Below are positions 1,783-11,207 of a stretch of 32,000 nt of DNA, in pieces (position 1 is the first letter of the stretch; every line of letters starts with the position of its first letter). A program made the translations under genes and the position numbers. The stretch is from Candidatus Thorarchaeota archaeon. GTDB taxonomy: Archaea > Asgardarchaeota > Thorarchaeia > Thorarchaeales > Thorarchaeaceae. The notes below the pieces were generated by a model that was not told where the DNA came from, did not search any database, and saw only the letters and a program-made list of their open reading frames with translations. The stretch lies in the NCBI GenBank assembly GCA_008080745.1, contig SHMX01000006.1:90001-122000 (forward strand). The letters are read 5' to 3'.

Positions 1783-2451
1783 TTGAAGAAAGTAATCTTA
1801 CTCTTCATCTGCATATTGATGATTTCAGATACGACTAACATAGTAGATGTAAAAAAATCAATGCTCACTCCAGAATCAAGCGTGTTACACTCACAAACGG
1901 AAGAAGGGTTTCAACTTCATAATCCAATCAACATTCATTCGGATCAAGAACTAGCAGAGGCCGGATACCCAGGAGAGGGAACTAAAGAATCACCATATAT
2001 CATTGAAGAGTTTAAAATCAATAGCGATGAAACGTGTATTTCCATTGAGGAAACTCGTAAGCACCTTATCATAAGAAATTGCATTTTAGTATCTGAAAAT
2101 GAAATAGATATCACACCGATTATCAATTTCGTAGACGTTGAAAATGTCAATATTCTAAATTGTACATTTAAAGGTAAACTAGTTTATCTTGAAATCACTC
2201 GTAGTATGAATGGAGCTATTGAAAATTCATCAATGCTAGGGGAAACAAATTCCATTCAGATTCATCATTCATCTGTATATACTATATCAAACAACTTCTA
2301 TCCAGAAACTAGTGCTGGAATAATCAACCTATATGATTCAGATAACATAGAAATTAGGGATCATTATGAAAATGGTCCAACATATATATCTGGTTCTGAT
2401 TCAAGTTATTGCACTATTAGAAATAACATTCTTTTCAAAAAGGATGTTTAA
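1783..2451 (+). CDS. Secreted NosD/CASH-like right-handed beta-helix protein, short or truncated
   Basis: TTG start and signal-like KKVILLFICILMIS. Cap motif HNPINIHSDQEL..GYPGEGTKESPYIIE is shared with the 7141 gene. I-x-N-C/N-x-I repeats. No C-terminal anchor. Confidence 0.7.
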   Translation: MKKVILLFICILMISDTTNIVDVKKSMLTPESSVLHSQTEEGFQLHNPINIHSDQELAEAGYPGEGTKESPYIIEEFKINSDETCISIEETRKHLIIRNCILVSENEIDITPIINFVDVENVNILNCTFKGKLVYLEITRSMNGAIENSSMLGETNSIQIHHSSVYTISNNFYPETSAGIINLYDSDNIEIRDHYENGPTYISGSDSSYCTIRNNILFKKDV

Positions 2452-2707
2452 TAATTATTCATTTCTACAGTATAGAAACGTGATAATGCTGCTATTATCC
2501 TGTTTTCCTCTAGATATGCTCTACCAGCTCTAAGTATTTCTTCCATATTATTTGATCCGAGTTTTGAGCAATATCGAGTATAGCATTTAATATGATATGA
2601 AATTCAGCTTCTGTATTTGCCAACCTTTCAATAGTAATATTGGTAATCTCATCATCTCTCGAAATTGACCGTGGTCTTGATGATGAGGAATATACTCGGG
2701 TAGGAGG
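2448..2707 (-). pseudogene. Possible C-terminal tail of the disrupted receptor gene, after an in-frame TAA and with one frameshift
   Basis: Frame stays open for 65 codons after the TAA at 2708 (PPTRVYSSSSRPRSISRDDEITNITIERLANTEAEFHIILNAILDIAQ...). Adding one A in the A4 run (2562-2565) gives KLGSNNMEEILRAGRAYLEENRIIAALSRFYTVEMNNY*, whose stop overlaps the stop of the opposite gene (TTAA, 2448-2451). Confidence 0.35.
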
Positions 2708-4618
2708 TTAGTAATGTACTAGTTTATCAGGTTTGAAATGCTCCCCACAATTTGGACAATTAACTTTTCCAAACATATCCTGTTGTGAAACATGATATGC
2801 TGAAGTTGTCCAACATTTTGGGCATATGACACCACCAGGTTTTTCTAATGATTTCTTAGGACCTGTACATAATACATTGAGATAGATTATGATTCCAATT
2901 ATTGCAATAATTAAGCCAATAATTCCACTTAGAAAGATTCCAATCAAAACACCAACTGTAATAACTCCTCTTGCTGCATCTATGTTTTCACTTTCTTTCC
3001 TTGATGAGAACTCTTGTGTAGGAGTATATTGGGGTATCTTACGGGGTCTATCTTCTACCATTTTACTCGGAAACTCTTGAGTTCTAGGTACAGCTTTTCG
3101 AGTAACAGGTTTTGATTCTTTAGGACGGGAGTATCTTCTAATAATTGTATCAACCTGTTGTTCATCAAGATTAGAATCAGATTTTAGACTCGATAATGTT
3201 CTTTCTCTATCTTCCTGTAAACTTTTCCTGAAATCTGAAATCCATTTACTACTAATAATCAAATCAGCTGACACAATTATTTGAATCTCATCAAATCGTT
3301 TGTATTGAAGTGCCCTAACTAAATCGTCAAGAGGTATCTCTAACCTTTCAGCCTCATCAGAAAGAAAAATGATATTGAGATTTTGAGCACGTTGGATTAT
3401 TTCCTGAAATTTTTTATCAACAGTTCTAATTGTATCATCTTCCGTTTTTAATATTGTCAATCTACTTGAAGCAAGAAGTTCTGTAAGAATATGACTTGGA
3501 AGATGAAAAACTTGTTCTAATTCACTCATAGTAGTATATTCTTGAGAAAGAAGGTACTCACTGACCTTATCAACTAGAATTTTTCTTCTGTAGCACTGGT
3601 AATCATCTGTGAAGATAAGGTCTGGCTCAGAGCCATCAGCTATTTGTTTAATTTTGTCGGAAGATACTCCACTTAATTTTGATAGTTTTTGTATGTCGAG
3701 ATGTCCATTTTCATTCAAAGAAGTTCCAATTTTTTCACTAAGCCATAGAAATGAAACAGCAAATTCACCATCTTGTGAAAGAATGACAATCGGTGAATCT
3801 TCCACAATTTTTCGAGTCTCTTGATCTGATTTTCCAAGAATCATCCTCAAATCAATTATCGAAACAATGTCGTTATCCTCCATTGCTTTTTCTAACGTGG
3901 ATTTTATCTTCCTTCGAGATAGAACCATTACAGCTCCAATCACTCCAATTAGCATCACTGCGGAAACACCACCGTAGATTGATACTGTCAAAACAGCTAA
4001 TCCGTTATCACGCTCAATTGTGATGGAAACGGTGTCTGAAAATTCTCTACCAAGTATATCGATAACGACTATTCTATATTCATAGATTCCAGGTGTATAA
4101 TCATTAATCTCAACAACTACATCATTGTTCCAATTCGTTCTCTTGTCAATTAGCTCATCATTCCTGAAAACCTCATAGGAAAAAGGATAATTGGAATTAA
4201 TAGTCCATTTAATGGTTTGATTTGTTGCGGTATCAAGAATTGTAGAATTGGATGCTGAAAATATGGAGAGACTACCAGTATAGACAAAAATCTCCACAGT
4301 CGAACTCCAATCACTCTTAAAGGTCAAGTCATCAACTGAACGAATCCGAACATAATACGTCCCATCTGCTAATTCTGTAAAAGTGTGATTCGTGCACGAG
4401 GTAGTGATTGAAGTTGAGTCGATAAAGTCATCTTCTTCATCAAATTCAAGCTGATATTCAATTACCGAACCATCTGGGTCTGAACATTCCAACCAAGTAA
4501 TTACAACATCCCTAGTTGAGCTCCGAATATAATCCGATGAAGGGACGGGAACCTCAGGTAAATCATTCTCTGGAAGGGCAACTACAAAAGAAGAAGTAAC
4601 ACTCCAAGAACTTGAGAT
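2708..4618 (-). pseudogene. 3' fragment of a disrupted membrane receptor: FN3-like, Ig-like, TM, tandem winged-helix repeats, TM hairpin, CxxC..CxxC Zn ribbon
   Basis: ORF 2708..4492 is open upstream to about 4618 (ISSSWSVTSSFVVALPENDLPEVPVP...VVITWLECSDPDG). GTYYVRIRS..KSDWS FN3 signature. TM at aa 165-192. CPKC/CPNC. Confidence 0.75.
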
Positions 4619-5085
4619 GCATATTCATTTGTGGATTTTATCCGAGTATAATAGGTTCCATTTGTAAGACCGCTAACTTCAATTGAAGTGTTTTCTACAG
4701 TATAAGAAGTAGGATCAGGAAATGAATCAGTTGTGTCTATGTGGATTGTATAAAAATCAATTGCGGCATCAACACACGTAGATTCATTCCATTCTATTAG
4801 CATGGTAGGTGTAACTACAGGGTCGGGGAGGCTTGTGAAATGAGGTGTTGTAGGAGTGGCTGATGTGACGTTCCACTCAAATGATTGAACGTGATCAGCA
4901 CCATAATTTGTACCATCATTCTCCATTGGTGACAAATCAGGACATGTGTCTCCATCCAGAGAATCAAAAGAGAGATGTAAAACAAGACCATCAGTAGCCG
5001 GATCAGAATTATCCATTGTCGACTCTATCTCTTCTTGTGTTAGTACTCGATTATAGATTCTTACTTCATCGATATACCCATAAAA
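4582..5085 (-). pseudogene. Middle fragment of the same gene: end of LamG domain plus FN3-like repeat
   Basis: FYGYIDEVRIYNRVLTQEEI (in frame, 5085-5026) is the canonical end of a LamG-like jellyroll. The FN3 repeat GTYYTRIKSTNEY shifts frame at about 4620. Confidence 0.75.
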
Positions 5086-5589
5086 TTAGTCACCTGAATA
5101 AGTACTATGGGGTTTATTTCCAATACATAGAATCACATCAGAAGTCATGAAATCTCCCGGTGTTGATGCGGATACCTGAAGTTCACCATTGTAAAATATC
5201 TCAGTATCAGTACGATCGAAAGTCCCCACAACATGGACCCACTCATTTGCAGGAGGTAGTGGGGTTTCAGCATGCCCATTTGTCGAGGCACCAAATTCCA
5301 TATTGCCTTCATCAATGAACCGATAGGATTTTTCTAGTATCCGTCGATTTCCAGCCCAATCAGTAGCTTTGATCCAGGCCATTGCAGTTATCTCTTCAGT
5401 TGGGTTTAATGATGAATCGTCTTGAACCACAACCTCATCTGAACCATCAAAGTACAACGCCATATTCGTTTCTTGACTAGTATTGAAATCTTTGATGAAT
5501 TGCTTTTCTCCAAATGATTGCTGATGCATTATTGGAAAAATCGAACTCATTACAAGTATTGTTATGACCAAAATCCTTCCTTTCATCAT
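5086..5589 (-). pseudogene. 5' fragment of the same gene: signal peptide plus LamG-like jellyroll, ending at a premature TAA
   Basis: Signal-like KGRILVITILVMSSIF. ALYFDG, ITAMAWIK, EWVHVVGTFD and IFYNGEL are LamG motifs. TAA at 5086-5088 interrupts GD*FYGYIDEVRIY. Confidence 0.8.
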
Positions 5590-5988
5590 ATATCCCTGAA
5601 AATATCAAGGTAGAAGAAAAGGATAAGTTATGTCTTTGCTAAATATAACATATTGATAGAAAATCAATTACAAAAACATACCAAAGTTGGATAGATAGAA
5701 GTCATAGATTTCGCAAAGTTTCTAGAATCTGTTCCAATCACGAATGATATCAAATCATTTTCCTTTTGAATTCTTTTCAAAAGCAACAAGGAGTAATTTC
5801 TGATATTGTAATAGATTCAATTAGGTTTTCTTTAACTCCAATACATAATATAGAGCATCCTAAACCGCATATACAATAATTTGAGTTCTATAAACTCTTC
5901 TTTTACTCGGAGAAAAGAAAGAGGATAAAATACTTACTTTTTCCCATTAGATAATATCATGGTTATGAAACAAATGTAACCAATTATT

Positions 5989-6016
5989 GAATGATGAAGG
6001 ATAATTCCCATCATTC
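5989..6016. promoter_or_regulatory. Inverted repeat upstream of the winged-helix genes, candidate operator
   Basis: GAATGATG-N12-CATCATTC with inner GGA/TCC pairing, ending 33 nt before ATG 6050. Confidence 0.35.
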
Positions 6017-6049: not shown

Positions 6050-6427
6050 ATGACAGAAGATACTGTAGATGGCATACTTATGAACACAATTCTTCCAGTT
6101 CTAGAAGATGTAGATGACATAAGTAAGATTGAGGAAATAATAGAAACATGTAGCAAAGATGAGGTCAAAATTTTACGTTTCCTTTTTGAAATGTTTAGAA
6201 AAGACCAAAGAAGATTCCCAATAAACCAAGCGGGGTGGAGAAACAAATATAGAATCCATTTAGGAACGGATATCTCTCAGAAGAAAATTTACTCGGAAAA
6301 TGGACCAATCGAATCTTTGATGGAATTGAATCTGCTCGAAATTCGAGATTCTCCTAATAGATGGGGAGGCCAGAAATACAACTATCGTATTCATGTAACT
6401 AAAAATATGTTATCTTATTTTGAGTAG
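6050..6427 (+). CDS. Stand-alone winged-helix protein (TrmB-like HTH pattern; GWRNKY/WGGQKY family)
   Basis: YRIHLGTDISQKKIY...IESLMELNLLE resembles an HTH, followed by wing WGGQKYNYRI. Clear paralogy with 6499..7101 and with the C-terminus of 9069..11207. Confidence 0.75.
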   Translation: MTEDTVDGILMNTILPVLEDVDDISKIEEIIETCSKDEVKILRFLFEMFRKDQRRFPINQAGWRNKYRIHLGTDISQKKIYSENGPIESLMELNLLEIRDSPNRWGGQKYNYRIHVTKNMLSYFE

Positions 6428-6498: not shown

Positions 6499-7101
6499 AT
6501 GGAACAAATTCGTCAAATTGGCAACTCAACTCTTTCCAAAGAGTATTATCCGAATCCAGAAAACAAGAGAACAGTGAATATCTTATTGGAAGTTTCCATG
6601 CCGATTATCATGTTCTCGATTCTTTCTCTCGGTATTTCAATCATAATGCTACTTTATGCAGTTCTTATGATGCGAGGTGTTTTCGGTGCAAAATCTCGGA
6701 GTGATGAAGCTTTGAACCGTGAGAAGATATTGATTCCGGATTCCATTGCAAGGGAAATCACTTCAGATAACATTTTGAAATTTCTAGGTTCTCTACTTAC
6801 AGAGGACGAGGTAAGAATAATAATTTCATTAGCTAAGGCGATTATCACTGATAGGGGAAATTCCATTGAAGAAAACAGAGCAGGTTTACGAAACAAATAC
6901 CAAATTAGCTCTGAATCAGGTGTAGCACAAAGATCGGTCTATGATAAAGGAGGTCCAATAGACCGTCTTGTTGAAGTAGGAATCATCACTAAGATTGAAG
7001 CTGAAAAGAAAACTGGAGGGCAGAAATACCTCTATTCTCTTAGCAAAGAGAGTTATATTATAGCTCCACTCATCGCAGTGCTTGAGAGTAATGAAGAGTA
7101 G
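6499..7101 (+). CDS. Membrane-anchored winged-helix protein of the same family
   Basis: TM segment ILLEVSMPIIMFSILSLGISIIMLLYAVLMM, then GLRNKYQISSESGVAQRSVYDKGGPIDRLVEVGII...TGGQKYLYSL. Start codon uncertain. Confidence 0.75.
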   Translation: MEQIRQIGNSTLSKEYYPNPENKRTVNILLEVSMPIIMFSILSLGISIIMLLYAVLMMRGVFGAKSRSDEALNREKILIPDSIAREITSDNILKFLGSLLTEDEVRIIISLAKAIITDRGNSIEENRAGLRNKYQISSESGVAQRSVYDKGGPIDRLVEVGIITKIEAEKKTGGQKYLYSLSKESYIIAPLIAVLESNEE

Positions 7102-9068: not shown

Positions 9069-11207
9069 TTAGCTCAAATCCAACATTATTTGAAATATCA
9101 GATTTTCGATGTTGATTCGATATTTAAACCTCTGACCACCCCAATTACAAGAAGTATAATTCTCTGAAATTAGGGTATTTTTCAGTAATGAATACATCAC
9201 ACCATTTTGACTGTAAATTTGCCGCTTGGACACCTTGGCTCCCATATGTATCTGGTATTTATTTCTCCATCCATATTCGTAAGGAGTTAATGAGTAGTCA
9301 CTTGCTAAGTCTTGGAGGAATTCATTAAATAGATAATAAATAACAGAATACATTTCACGATTGAGAATACTATCAAGAAATTTCCAACACCTATCGATTG
9401 TAAGATTTGAGAATATACGTTGTAAATTGATTACCAAGTATTGTGAGTAGGGGTACATCAGTGTACGTTCCTTGATTTTTTCTAATAATAGAAAAGCCAC
9501 GCCTATAGGAAATATAATAAGAACGAAGATTTTCAAGATTGGGGTCAGATTAGATAGAATCAATAGTGGAGGTTGTAATTCGTAATCAAACGTATTCGTG
9601 CTATTGATATTACCATCAAAATCTTGGACAATAATTTCAAATTGGATAACACTGAAACTTCCAATCATAATATCTGTTGACCAACCACATTCATTTTTTG
9701 TCATCTCTGTAACATTCCAGATATTGGATGAGTCAATCGAGTAATTTAACCTCATTATTTCAATTGAAGAATTAGTGGAAGCAACAATTGTTACATTTGA
9801 CATATCATGGTAGATTTCCAAATTCAAGGATATCGAAGGAGGTTTATAGTTAATAGACTCCCTCATACTGATTACGACATCAACACTCATGATAGGATAA
9901 AGGTCTTGTATCCCGAATTCAATTGTGTAAGGTTCGTCAGCAATAAGATCTCCGTCATCATCTTCGCCCTGATATGAGGCATAATAATTTCCGTATTTCG
10001 CATTACAGAATTCTATGAAACCAAGTTCTGTACCACTGATTAAATCTGAGGAGGGTTGAATTAAAGCGTTTACGAAAACTCGTCCAGAACTTTCCCAAAA
10101 ATTCATGCTCGTAAGCATTGACCGATTTATAATATTTCCAAAGATACAGACGTTCTCTACTTCAGTACAAGATAGACCCCAACCTTTTGACATTATAATA
10201 TCATTCAGAACTATATCGATTCCTCCAGATCTATAAATTTCAATTCCATCTCCACTTGAATAGTATACAGAATTAGATGAAATGGTAATATCTTCAGTAT
10301 ATTGAACCAATAAAGAATGACAATTCTCCAATGTGTTATTTTGAATATTGCTATCAATACACTCAAAGAACCTTATTCCTGAGCGATTGGATTGTATAAT
10401 GAGATTGTTACTGAGAGTTGCATTTTTTGTTCTGCAAACATAGATTGCATTTTCATTACTCGACGCAATGGTATTGCAAGATATTATGGAATTGTTTGTG
10501 GTGTCAACGAATATACCATTAAGAGATGATTCAAATATTGAATTATTTTTAATATATATATCTGAACTCTGAATAACATCAATCGCATCGCCATTCGATT
10601 CAAACAGATTTCCGAAAATAGTAACTTCTGATGCATAAGCGACTTCAATCCCAATATTGGATCCCGAAATGTTATTGTGAGTCAGGATTGTTTTTTGTGC
10701 TTCATGGACTTTTATGGCTCTTTTAGGCTGATTGAAAAAGGAACAATTTTGAACGAGCGAATCAAAACCGCTAATATGAATTAGCTCCTTTGTTATATAT
10801 CCTGCATAGAACATGCAATCAATGAGTTCGACGATAGAACCTTCATGGGAAATAAAATACCACTCAAACTCCTCAATCGATCTAATGTACGTGTTTTCTA
10901 GTTTCAGGAAACCACCGTTTTTTACTATGATATTGCAATAATCTTGAGTAGCAATTATTGTGCAATTATCAAAGAGTATTCTTTCGTCTTTAGAAATATA
11001 AATTGAAGTTTCTAGTTCGAATATTTTGTTGCGGTAGACACTTGTGTAATCATTACTCTTCTGCTTAATCATGTTAGAATCAAAGTGAGATGAGTAGGGA
11101 ATAATATCAGGGAATCCAAAAATAGAGGTGCCAAATATCTGTAGGGAAAATAGTGATAGGAATAACAATGAAACTATTCGTTTACTATCAAATCCTGCCC
11201 TTCTCAA
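9069..11207 (-). CDS. Single-pass receptor-like protein: NosD/CASH beta-helix, Ig-like domain, TM, cytoplasmic winged-helix domain
   Basis: TTG start with GGTGTGA upstream. N-terminal hydrophobic segment. Beta-helix repeats ending in GNYY..YQGEDDDGDLIADEPY. TM ILKIFVLIIFPIGVAFLLL. C-terminal GWRNKYQIH...IYSQNG...WGGQRFKYRI. Confidence 0.85.
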   Translation of the reverse strand: MRRAGFDSKRIVSLLFLSLFSLQIFGTSIFGFPDIIPYSSHFDSNMIKQKSNDYTSVYRNKIFELETSIYISKDERILFDNCTIIATQDYCNIIVKNGGFLKLENTYIRSIEEFEWYFISHEGSIVELIDCMFYAGYITKELIHISGFDSLVQNCSFFNQPKRAIKVHEAQKTILTHNNISGSNIGIEVAYASEVTIFGNLFESNGDAIDVIQSSDIYIKNNSIFESSLNGIFVDTTNNSIISCNTIASSNENAIYVCRTKNATLSNNLIIQSNRSGIRFFECIDSNIQNNTLENCHSLLVQYTEDITISSNSVYYSSGDGIEIYRSGGIDIVLNDIIMSKGWGLSCTEVENVCIFGNIINRSMLTSMNFWESSGRVFVNALIQPSSDLISGTELGFIEFCNAKYGNYYASYQGEDDDGDLIADEPYTIEFGIQDLYPIMSVDVVISMRESINYKPPSISLNLEIYHDMSNVTIVASTNSSIEIMRLNYSIDSSNIWNVTEMTKNECGWSTDIMIGSFSVIQFEIIVQDFDGNINSTNTFDYELQPPLLILSNLTPILKIFVLIIFPIGVAFLLLEKIKERTLMYPYSQYLVINLQRIFSNLTIDRCWKFLDSILNREMYSVIYYLFNEFLQDLASDYSLTPYEYGWRNKYQIHMGAKVSKRQIYSQNGVMYSLLKNTLISENYTSCNWGGQRFKYRINIENLIFQIMLDLS

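Follow-up and report, generated by a model that had tools for sequence, protein, structure and literature searches.

Of the UFM1 system, UFL1 and DDRGK1 are the part that is understood least. DDRGK1 (UFBP1) consists of an N-terminal TM anchor, a helical region, a WH1' carrying the DDRGK motif and, at its end, a partial WH. UFL1 is built of about five consecutive PCI-like winged-helix (WH) domains with their first helices forming a backbone (Peter et al., PMC9627666), its N-terminal alpha-1 helix binds UFC1, and its partial WH pairs with the pWH' of DDRGK1 (PMC9627666, PMC10937380). In the solved complex, the WH domains of UFL1 contact almost exclusively ribosomal proteins and not rRNA (PMC10937380). 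Phylogenies trace UFL1 and DDRGK1 to Asgard archaea and suggest that both predate UFM1, and for the Asgard proteins a role independent of UFM1 was put forward by Picchianti et al. (PMC10183829); the role of the pair before UFM1 is the question on which the present finding bears. UFL1/DDRGK1-like proteins of Asgard archaea have already been published (PMC10183829; bioRxiv 10.1101/2020.10.19.343400), among them "E3 UFM1-protein ligase 1" domain proteins in whose C-terminal part Liu et al. (bioRxiv 10.1101/2020.10.19.343400) describe domains of the adaptin/COPI appendage and Vps28-like kinds. Moreover, homologues of Ufm1 itself were found in nine Asgard clades via structure comparison (PMC12962969).

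We analyzed a window of 32,000 nucleotides from a Candidatus Thorarchaeota archaeon (contig SHMX01000006.1, positions 90,001 to 122,000), in which a first-pass annotation had flagged positions 3131-3904 of the minus strand, corresponding to aa 197-454 of a 594-aa ORF (2708..4492), as cytoplasmic winged helices resembling UFL1 on a surface receptor. Three-frame translation showed that this ORF belongs to a single disrupted gene of ~960 codons, encoding in order a putative signal peptide, LamG, two FN3 domains, a putative Ig-like domain, a TM helix, a winged-helix (wH) array, a linker, a hydrophobic hairpin and a Zn ribbon (Table 1). A carbohydrate-binding-type ectodomain is joined via one TM helix to 4.5 PCI-like wH. 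The gene probably specifies a rare Asgard receptor with a cytoplasmic wH scaffold that is homologous to UFL1/DDRGK1 and would serve UFM1-independent docking, in a copy that is broken in this genome.

Table 1. Features of the disrupted receptor gene, in window coordinates (aa numbers refer to the 594-aa ORF).
Feature	Position	Strand	Basis
Whole disrupted gene	2708..5589	(-)	Three-frame translation; collinear with intact homologues P0006, P0012/L021, L022
N-terminal signal peptide or signal anchor (putative)	5509..5589	(-)	Hydrophobic N-terminus read from the sequence, without a predictor
LamG / concanavalin-A-like lectin domain, split by stop codon	5026..5448	(-)	Pfam Laminin_G_3
In-frame TAA nonsense codon within LamG	5086..5088	(-)	Sense codon at this site in intact homologues
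Interval holding a 1-nt deletion-type frameshift, close to the end of the first FN3	4585..4624	(-)	
Two FN3 domains	4292..4809	(-)	Weak Pfam fn3 matches
Putative membrane-proximal Ig-like / E-set domain	4013..4270	(-)	Aligns with the equivalent segment of homologues
TM helix 1, aa ~164-192	3917..4003	(-)	Hydropathy; predicted unbroken into helix 1 of wH1
wH1, aa 193-247	3752..3916	(-)	AF2 secondary structure
wH2, aa 248-302	3587..3751	(-)	AF2; inside PF09743 match at aa 236-351
wH3, aa 303-357	3422..3586	(-)	AF2; aligns to the UFL1 WH with the GQVTISEL segment
wH4, aa 358-414	3251..3421	(-)	AF2
Fifth wH, incomplete, aa 415-457; made of three helices without beta wing	3122..3250	(-)	AF2, alignments
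Linker, aa 458-503, disordered, basic (net charge +4) and rich in Pro	2984..3121	(-)	pLDDT <50; charge count
Hydrophobic stretch (34-35 aa), probable membrane hairpin of two helices	2879..2983	(-)	Hydropathy
C-terminal four-Cys zinc ribbon	2729..2830	(-)	CPKC aa 557-560, CPNC aa 579-582

In Pfam, Laminin_G_3 was matched upstream of the TAA with E 8.5e-13, and the final 20 profile positions lie after it. The fn3 matches had E 0.0023 (fragment 4585-5085) and E 0.014 (aa 5-67 of the 594-aa ORF), with E 5e-10 to 5e-11 in the homologues, while the Ig-like segment gave only sub-threshold E-set and PKD-like matches. At the protein's opposite end, the hydrophobic segment aligns with a clear two-helix hairpin of the homologues and was modelled by AF2 as two helices at low confidence, and all four Cys of the zinc ribbon are invariant among homologues, with sub-threshold Pfam zinc-ribbon matches.

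The frameshift interval is limited by two stop codons, TGA (4625-4627) in the downstream frame and TAG (4582-4584) in the upstream frame, and by homology the lesion most likely lies around 4612-4617. Two Logan contigs (43x and 112x), built independently from two runs, were identical to the window over 2600-5700 and contain both the TAA and the frameshift, so that assembly errors were rejected as their cause; the assembly itself was probably made from these two runs, therefore this agreement rules out an assembly error and leaves room for a minority intact allele. Recoding of the TAA was also rejected as unparsimonious, considering that a frameshift would be needed too and that neighbouring ORFs are normal under table 11. 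As the nonsense codon and the frameshift are reproduced in independent contigs, the copy of this genome is probably a recent pseudogene. Downstream of the lesions, 638 codons are still open, in DNA of 33-36% GC; inactivation would therefore be very recent, or the C-terminal part may still be in use.

The receptor form was found in 3/87 genomes, this one included, and is intact in the two others. The homologues (P0006, 1435 aa; P0012/L021, 913 aa; G037, 2015 aa) share with it the order LamG-FN3-TM-wH5-hairpin-Zn-ribbon and align collinearly with it between the membrane-proximal domain and the Zn ribbon; the copy studied here differs in that it carries the TAA and the frameshift and is missing the wing of the fifth wH, which the alignments place in the homologues. 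The coupling of a LamG/FN3 ectodomain to the array, as first described from the ORF, is real and recurs in intact homologues. Conserved neighbours of the gene are small wH proteins of another kind ("GWRNKY" wH), one of them soluble and 125 aa long. Their candidacy as specific partners of the receptor was weakened, as the same wH pair of a congener adjoins a different (beta-helix) surface protein.

Directly after the TM helix (3916..3122, minus strand), the AF2 model of aa 190-480 (pLDDT 87, pTM 0.71, 10-row alignment) contains four complete and one partial wH with a period of ~55 aa, which agrees with the about five repeats of about 50 aa initially noticed. Complete units have the topology H1(long)-b1-H2-H3-b2-b3, and the chain is disordered beyond the fifth unit. 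A second AF2 model, whose alignment consisted of the four receptor homologues only, gave the same array; in it, a single helix spans aa 164-206 and includes both the TM segment and helix 1 of wH1. Because the units are mutually just 9-15% identical, the repeat is an observation of structure and not of sequence. The array carries a net charge of -11 here and of -7 to -18 across all four receptor arrays.

We then compared this array with known structures. The resemblance to UFL1 was recovered as the best match in Pfam, in PDB profiles, in Foldseek against PDB and AFDB Swiss-Prot, and by VIA-align. Against PDB, the top five Foldseek matches were all UFL1 or a DDRGK1-UFL1 chimera (E 1.7e-9 to 1.5e-7). 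Across the structural alignments, the modelled array was collinear with UFL1 residues 56/60-350 (Foldseek E 7e-10 to 1.7e-9). In AFDB Swiss-Prot, the best 30 models were all UFL1 orthologues, which came from animals, plants and Dictyostelium; query residues 5-265 were aligned on UFL1 60-350. VIA-align gave Z 11.7 over 227 residues with 8b9x_A, a match that covers DDRGK1 as well as the UFL1 portion, and Z 9.8 over 264 residues with 8ohd_A. TM-scores were low (0.35-0.44) because the inter-domain geometry differs.

At the sequence level, PF09743 (E3_UFM1_ligase) was the top Pfam family for the cytoplasmic part with 17.2 bits (E 0.004, aa 190-480) or 14.9 bits for the whole ORF, both below the gathering threshold of 23.2 bits, and at E <0.1 it was not found in P0006 and L021, two of the three intact homologues. 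Using a mixed profile against PDB, UFL1 chains were the sole matches under E 0.01 (best 2e-5), and a receptor-only profile returned 8b9x first (E 0.004). Single-sequence phmmer against PDB gave nothing meaningful, its best match being an AlbF homologue at E 0.13, and a k-mer homologue search with aa 190-480 returned only the protein itself. The two UFL1 segments that the first-pass annotation had quoted proved genuine, as HMMER alignments to UFL1 chains of PDB contain both, and the profile alignment pairs them with the receptor residues it had proposed, the first pair being identical at 12/35 positions.

Searching for related arrays, we found two further types in the same genome, both annotated as "hypothetical proteins". 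Type B (G000:C3:430682-432649) has an N-terminal TM helix followed by ~11 wH in ~650 aa, and type C (G000:C1:410824-413154) has a TM helix, ~5 wH and TPR in ~780-810 aa. Like the receptor, both are membrane-tethered with a collinear and homologous five-wH module, but they are without ectodomain, hairpin and Zn ribbon. The receptor profile aligned with the C-terminal five wH of type B at 98.9% in hhalign (E 1.2e-17, 277 columns), and the receptor HMM found type B (E 1.5e-23) and the N-terminus of type C (E 1.2e-14) in its own genome; phmmer across the whole library linked the receptor to the TM+11-wH family at E 1e-6 to 7e-6. The array belongs to a lineage-specific (Thorarchaeota-type) family in which wH arrays are anchored to the membrane. 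In 21/76 sampled genomes of the family, type B is present as a conserved single-copy gene, and its proteins clear the PF09743 cut-off with up to 50.4 bits (E 3e-13), a Pfam family present in 77/301 sampled genomes. The TM+11-wH paralogue is better conserved than the receptor form, and a scan with the type-B protein led to one congener, "Promethearchaeota archaeon RBin_111". As PF09743 stays sub-threshold in this protein and is lacking in 2/3 homologues, the direct sequence link to UFL1 is weak, hence homology of the array to the wH scaffold of UFL1/DDRGK1 is supported through transitivity and predicted structure.

The protein is no UFL1 orthologue. No feature of UFL1 beyond the wH array is present: the helix that binds UFC1, the pWH and the region at the C-terminus are all missing. 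In the AF2 model, the first complete wH follows the membrane without any intervening segment that could correspond to the alpha-1 helix and pWH of UFL1, and structural alignments begin past the UFL1 pWH, at UFL1 residues 56-60. The UFL1 C-terminal helical region with the PTC loop is absent and the linker, hairpin and Zn ribbon are found instead; no match to a UFIM or DDRGK motif was found in the protein. The first domain gave a weak profile alignment with the DDRGK1 WH, and PF09756 (DDRGK) had no match on this gene. The PF09756 matches of the genome were not used, as they are sub-threshold, lie elsewhere and come from a model that also rings in 9/14 control genomes.

We also looked for the UFM1 system in this genome, as the first reading of the locus had suggested. 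A six-frame Pfam search of the 98%-complete genome revealed no UFM1 or UFC1 gene (best E 0.999 for Ufm1 and 0.15 for UFC1), no CDK5RAP3 and no UQ_con, and only one generic ThiF-type E1-like gene. The genome is therefore without a detectable UFM1 system by Pfam, from which divergent homologues recognizable by structure only may escape.

Taken together, these data point to the array as an acidic, fairly rigid protein-docking platform. Anchors at both ends would hold it on the inner face of the membrane, its first helix extending the TM helix, and it would link the glycan-binding surface part to putative, probably basic, cytoplasmic protein partners. A scaffold rather than a nucleic-acid binder is suggested by the net charge of the array and by the contacts of the UFL1 WH domains with ribosomal proteins (PMC10937380), and independence from UFM1 by the absence of Ufm1, UFC1, UQ_con and CDK5RAP3 matches as well as by the role proposed for Asgard UFL1/DDRGK1 (PMC10183829). 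The array would then function without UFM1, neither as E3 ligase nor as DNA-binding regulator.

Which partners might be docked can be approached from the best structural matches, which are UFL1 chains from 60S complexes. A specific version of the scaffold idea is a ribosome/translocon dock, in which the membrane-pinned array, similarly to UFL1/DDRGK1 on the ER, would bind large-subunit proteins and keep ribosomes or free large subunits on the membrane next to this surface protein, without UFM1. All WH of UFL1 touch ribosomal proteins and deletion of WH2-4 abolishes ribosome modification (PMC10937380, PMC9627666), the acidity of the array would match ribosomal proteins that are basic, and its anchor sits right at the membrane. 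However, the main elements gripping the 60S (the UFL1 C-terminal region, the UFBP1 N-terminal helix and CDK5RAP3) are absent, and the rarity of the receptor fits an accessory role better than one in core translation, so that we consider such a dock unlikely. A broader, evolutionary reading, to which we likewise give a small chance only, takes the single-chain TM+wH arrays as the unsplit pre-UFM1 state of DDRGK1 and UFL1, a membrane-anchored platform to which large ribosomal subunits or other machinery would dock and that eukaryotes would later have split and recruited as the ER UFM1 ligase. If true, the receptor fusion would tie an extracellular glycan-binding domain to the local docking of machinery.

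The likeness to UFL1 might also reflect convergence, or an ancient shared wH ancestry, of a generic tandem of PCI-like wH, and the first-pass annotation had itself named a resemblance not exceeding generic wH folds as what would speak against its proposal. The protein stays under the PF09743 cut-off, its repeats have diverged strongly from each other, and single wH match many unrelated regulators (Z 7-8.6). Moreover, the repeat register depends on the method, the HMM setting wH2-3 on UFL1 WH1-2 and Foldseek setting wH1 on WH1, and one-to-one orthology of the repeats with UFL1 WH units was not established by either register. On the contrary, UFL1 leads both the profile and the structure searches. 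In Foldseek against PDB it is 4-6 orders of magnitude ahead of the other tandem-wH proteins, the next family being SelB (E 5e-5), followed by ESCRT-II and PCI (E 8e-3 or worse); in VIA-align single-wH matches do not exceed Z 8.6 and UFL1 is the sole family aligned over 230-260 residues. UFL1 comes first by sequence too, in Pfam and in PDB, and the homologous TM+11-wH family clears the curated Pfam threshold. This explanation is already disfavoured and appears improbable to us.

The winged helix is the classic fold for DNA binding, and a transcription regulator of the ToxR/CadC type, one-component and tethered to the membrane, with one or more wH that would bind DNA upon ligand sensing by the ectodomain, was also considered. 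Single units indeed match IclR, PurR and Z-alpha (Z 7.3-8.6), and the conserved neighbours include small wH proteins of another kind; but the array is acidic in 4/4 homologues (-7 to -18) and pinned to the membrane by either end, and the matches that cover several of its domains are scaffolds with no regulators among them, making this a very improbable reading. A true UFM1-type E3 ligase of archaea, joined to a receptor, which would agree with the homology to the UFL1 WH array and with the Ufm1 homologues reported in nine Asgard clades (PMC12962969), is hardly credible at all, considering that the alpha-1 helix that binds and activates UFC1 and the pWH are absent, with the TM helix entering wH1 directly, and that the 98%-complete genome gave no match to Ufm1, UFC1, UQ_con or CDK5RAP3 and has a single E1-like gene, of a generic ThiF type.

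The UFM1-independent docking scaffold is the reading that we retain as probable. On the role of the pair before UFM1, the finding adds that one Asgard lineage already has the UFL1-type array as a scaffold anchored to the membrane, in the receptor as well as in the TM+11-wH paralogue, and that this array is present in a genome without detectable UFM1, UFC1 and CDK5RAP3. The value of the locus itself is limited by the broken copy, by the very rare receptor form and by the previously known presence of the domain in Asgard archaea; the receptor and its TM+11-wH paralogue nonetheless are concrete proteins for testing a UFM1-independent, membrane-proximal docking.

Among described systems, tandem or paired wH are likewise found in SelB (C-terminal wH1-4), in ESCRT-II (Vps22/25/36) and in the PCI proteins of the CSN and proteasome lid, with no sequence-level signal between these and the array. 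The winged helices of SelB, ESCRT-II and PCI proteins serve as RNA or protein docking modules. Closer are the published soluble Asgard forms of ~790 aa, which combine Zn fingers with a UFL1-type wH array of the same type; those proteins are soluble and, by the domain names of Liu et al., fused to ESCRT/trafficking domains, whereas the receptor described here is integral to the membrane and has an extracellular part. The closest comparison is with the UFL1-DDRGK1 complex (8b9x, 8c0d, 8ohd, 8qfc), which also has consecutive PCI-like wH with the first helices as backbone and an N-terminal TM anchor on the cytoplasmic membrane face, provided in eukaryotes by DDRGK1. In contrast to this split pair joined via a composite pWH, the Thorarchaeota protein carries its array in one chain, to which a LamG/FN3 ectodomain outside the cell, a second hairpin in the membrane and a Zn ribbon are fused.

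The cytoplasmic array of the receptor is a homologue of the UFL1/DDRGK1-type winged-helix (wH) array, without one-to-one orthology of the repeats. It lies in a 594-codon minus-strand ORF (2708..4492), where the first-pass annotation had seen tandem wH repeats directly after the TM helix. The AF2 model covering aa 190-480 (built from a 10-row alignment; pLDDT 87, pTM 0.71) agrees with this, giving four complete wH in the order H1-b1-H2-H3-b2-b3, with a period of about 55 aa, and a fifth unit of three helices without wing. A second model, with four receptor homologues only as input, gave the same array; there, the TM helix is predicted to be continuous with the first helix of the first wH and, with low confidence, the hydrophobic segment beyond the linker is predicted as two helices. 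Identity between repeats is merely 9-15%, and the array is acidic (net charge -11 in the window copy, -7 to -18 across homologues).

Features of the receptor from the outside inwards, and of the second kind of wH domain found near it
Feature	Coordinates	Remarks
Signal peptide		Outermost part, N-terminal
LamG domain		Ectodomain, next to signal peptide
Two FN3 domains		Ectodomain, after LamG
Ig-like domain		Ectodomain, between FN3 pair and TM
TM helix	aa ~164-192 in the 594-aa ORF	
UFL1-like wH array	aa 193-457 of the 594-aa ORF	
Disordered basic linker		Follows array
Hydrophobic segment, 34-35 aa		Between linker and zinc ribbon; two-helix hairpin obvious in aligned homologues
Four-Cys zinc ribbon		Innermost, C-terminal; cysteines invariant among homologues
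GWRNKY...WGxQK wH domain	6050-6427 (+), 6499-7101 (+), C-terminus of 9069-11207 (-)	

The proposed likeness to UFL1 was supported by Pfam and Foldseek, as UFL1 ranks first in both. E3_UFM1_ligase (PF09743) was the top Pfam family for the cytoplasmic part, with a score (17.2 bits, E 0.004) that does not reach the curated cut-off of 23.2 bits. Against the PDB, the profile of the four receptor arrays matched best the DDRGK1-UFL1 chimera 8b9x (E 0.004), and with a broader profile including paralogues UFL1 chains were the sole matches with E < 0.01 (best 2e-5). The top five Foldseek matches in the PDB were all UFL1 (1.7e-9 to 1.5e-7), the next families being SelB (5e-5) and the ESCRT-II and PCI proteins (1e-2), while UFL1 orthologues of animals, plants and Dictyostelium made up 30/30 among the matches listed for AFDB Swiss-Prot, with collinear alignments (query 5-265, UFL1 60-350). 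VIA-align to UFL1 entries extended over 227 residues (Z 11.7) and 264 residues (Z 9.8); all non-UFL1 matches covered a single wH with Z <= 8.6. Both UFL1 segments quoted in the annotation are authentic and, in the HMM alignment, lie opposite the same residues as proposed. The repeat register varies, HMMs pairing wH2-wH3 with UFL1 WH1-WH2, Foldseek pairing wH1 with WH1 and VIA placing the array along the full length of the DDRGK1-UFL1 chimera; such a non-unique register is expected for repeats. By hhalign, the array is clearly homologous to the five C-terminal wH of a TM+11-wH protein (98.9%, E 1.2e-17, 277 columns), and members of this protein's family exceed the E3_UFM1_ligase threshold (at best 50.4 bits, E 3e-13). 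Matches to the DDRGK model elsewhere in the genome were sub-threshold and non-specific.

Three-frame translation revealed a longer gene starting at 5589, with the 594-codon ORF as its distal two thirds. The first 167 codons of this gene encode a signal-peptide-like N-terminus and most of LamG (Pfam Laminin_G_3, E 8.5e-13) and are terminated by an in-frame TAA at 5086-5088, after which the unchanged frame encodes the last 20 LamG profile positions and then an FN3; a one-base shift between 4624 and 4585 joins this frame to that of the ORF. Both sites are read through in intact homologues, namely the metagenomic protein P0006 (1435 aa) and the 913-aa and 2015-aa proteins from two genomes within the same family. 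Logan contigs from two marine-sediment runs (43x and 112x, built independently) match window 2600-5700 identically; therefore, the TAA and the frameshift are real in the DNA and no assembly artefact. The receptor gene in this organism is thus most likely a recent pseudogene, although the two runs are probably the source sample of the assembly, so that a minority allele may be intact. A second contig of the same runs (106,855 bases) matches the window only at the LamG segment 4883-5080, with a diverged 129-base middle, and its LamG gene is a paralogue from the same or a co-occurring organism.

A close relative (the congener) is syntenic with the window on either side of the receptor position and carries in this slot an intact 1567-aa beta-helix surface protein (L079:3125-7828). 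The window ORF 1783-2451 (+), 222 aa, is left over from the N-terminal part of that protein, and the remainder of the slot is filled by the receptor gene in opposite orientation. Therefore, the receptor gene belongs to a variable island of surface-protein genes that undergo exchange and decay, two decayed genes being present here. The GWRNKY...WGxQK motif marks a rare wH domain, different in kind from the UFL1-like one, with five copies in the genome and present in 18/87 genomes of the order; it mostly comes in pairs, one protein being soluble and the other TM-tethered. This domain occurs within 5 kb of all four receptor loci seen (the window, L077, L078 and G037:C140); as it also adjoins the beta-helix protein of the congener, it is tied to the island and not to the UFL1-like array specifically. 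The G+C content of window 2001-6000 is 0.33-0.36 vs 0.39-0.43 for the genome's contigs, which fits a recent acquisition, an ectodomain composition bias being possible as well. Five contigs of the genome (C14, C15, C17, C18 and C19; 2.4-15 kb) have 62-65% G+C vs about 41% elsewhere and are probably contamination in the bin.

Peter et al. described the UFL1 array as a helical-backbone scaffold (PMC9627666), and structures of 60S complexes show WH domains of UFL1 touching ribosomal proteins almost exclusively, and not rRNA (PMC10937380). Considering the conserved acidity, the rigid TM connection, the second membrane anchor and the zinc ribbon, the receptor array probably acts as a protein-docking platform lying along the inner membrane face and coupled to a carbohydrate-binding-type ectodomain. 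In the 2015-aa homologue, two further domains, one six-hairpin glycosidase-like and one ThuA-like, lengthen the ectodomain. By analogy with UFL1, ribosome docking would be an attractive special case of such a platform. ToxR-type DNA binding is unlikely for an acidic array anchored twice in the membrane. True E3 activity is also unlikely, as the features making UFL1 an E3 are absent: the UFC1-binding and UFC1-activating alpha-1 helix and partial WH (PMC9627666, PMC10937380) are missing because the membrane helix enters the first complete wH directly, and UFL1's C-terminal region is not present. Moreover, the UFM1-system genes that the first-pass annotation suggested looking for did not emerge, as Pfam searches of all six frames in the 98%-complete genome found no Ufm1, UFC1, CDK5RAP3 or UQ_con but only a single generic ThiF-type E1-like gene.

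UFL1- and DDRGK1-like Asgard proteins, and the proposal that they predate UFM1, are already published (PMC10183829). PF09743 is widespread, in 77/301 sampled Asgard genomes, the majority of these proteins being soluble, of ~790 aa, with N-terminal zinc fingers, and corresponding to the fusion of Liu et al. (bioRxiv 10.1101/2020.10.19.343400). In another Asgard family (f9), ~790-aa proteins (L065, L068, L074) occur in 60/68 sampled genomes; they carry several zinc fingers at the N-terminus, an array of five wH scoring up to 72 bits for PF09743, and a large C-terminal portion, and are probably the published Vps28/adaptin-appendage/E3-UFM1 fusion. A 776-aa protein of the window's genome (G000:C1:410824-413154 (-), locus L003) has about five N-terminal UFL1-like wH and then a long TPR region; it matches the receptor profile (HMM E 1e-14), and its 808-aa orthologue in G077 has a hydrophobic N-terminal helix. 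Our literature search found no paper joining UFL1, winged helix and Asgard, and no description of a receptor-fused or TM-anchored single-chain UFL1-like form in the literature examined. The receptor form is present in 3/87 genomes of the order, with exactly one additional 50%-identity representative among 1.8 billion proteins. The TM+11-wH paralogue occurs as a single copy in 21/76 genomes sampled from the family, and at E 1e-20 none turned up in the rest of the phylum; being better conserved, this paralogue is a more promising object than the receptor locus. In the window's genome it has 655 aa, an N-terminal TM helix and then about 11 wH (G000:C3:430682-432649 (-), locus L001:187-2154). Both it and its orthologues score above the Pfam cut-off for E3_UFM1_ligase (25.7 to 50.4 bits), and the protein looks like DDRGK1 plus UFL1 in one membrane-anchored chain.
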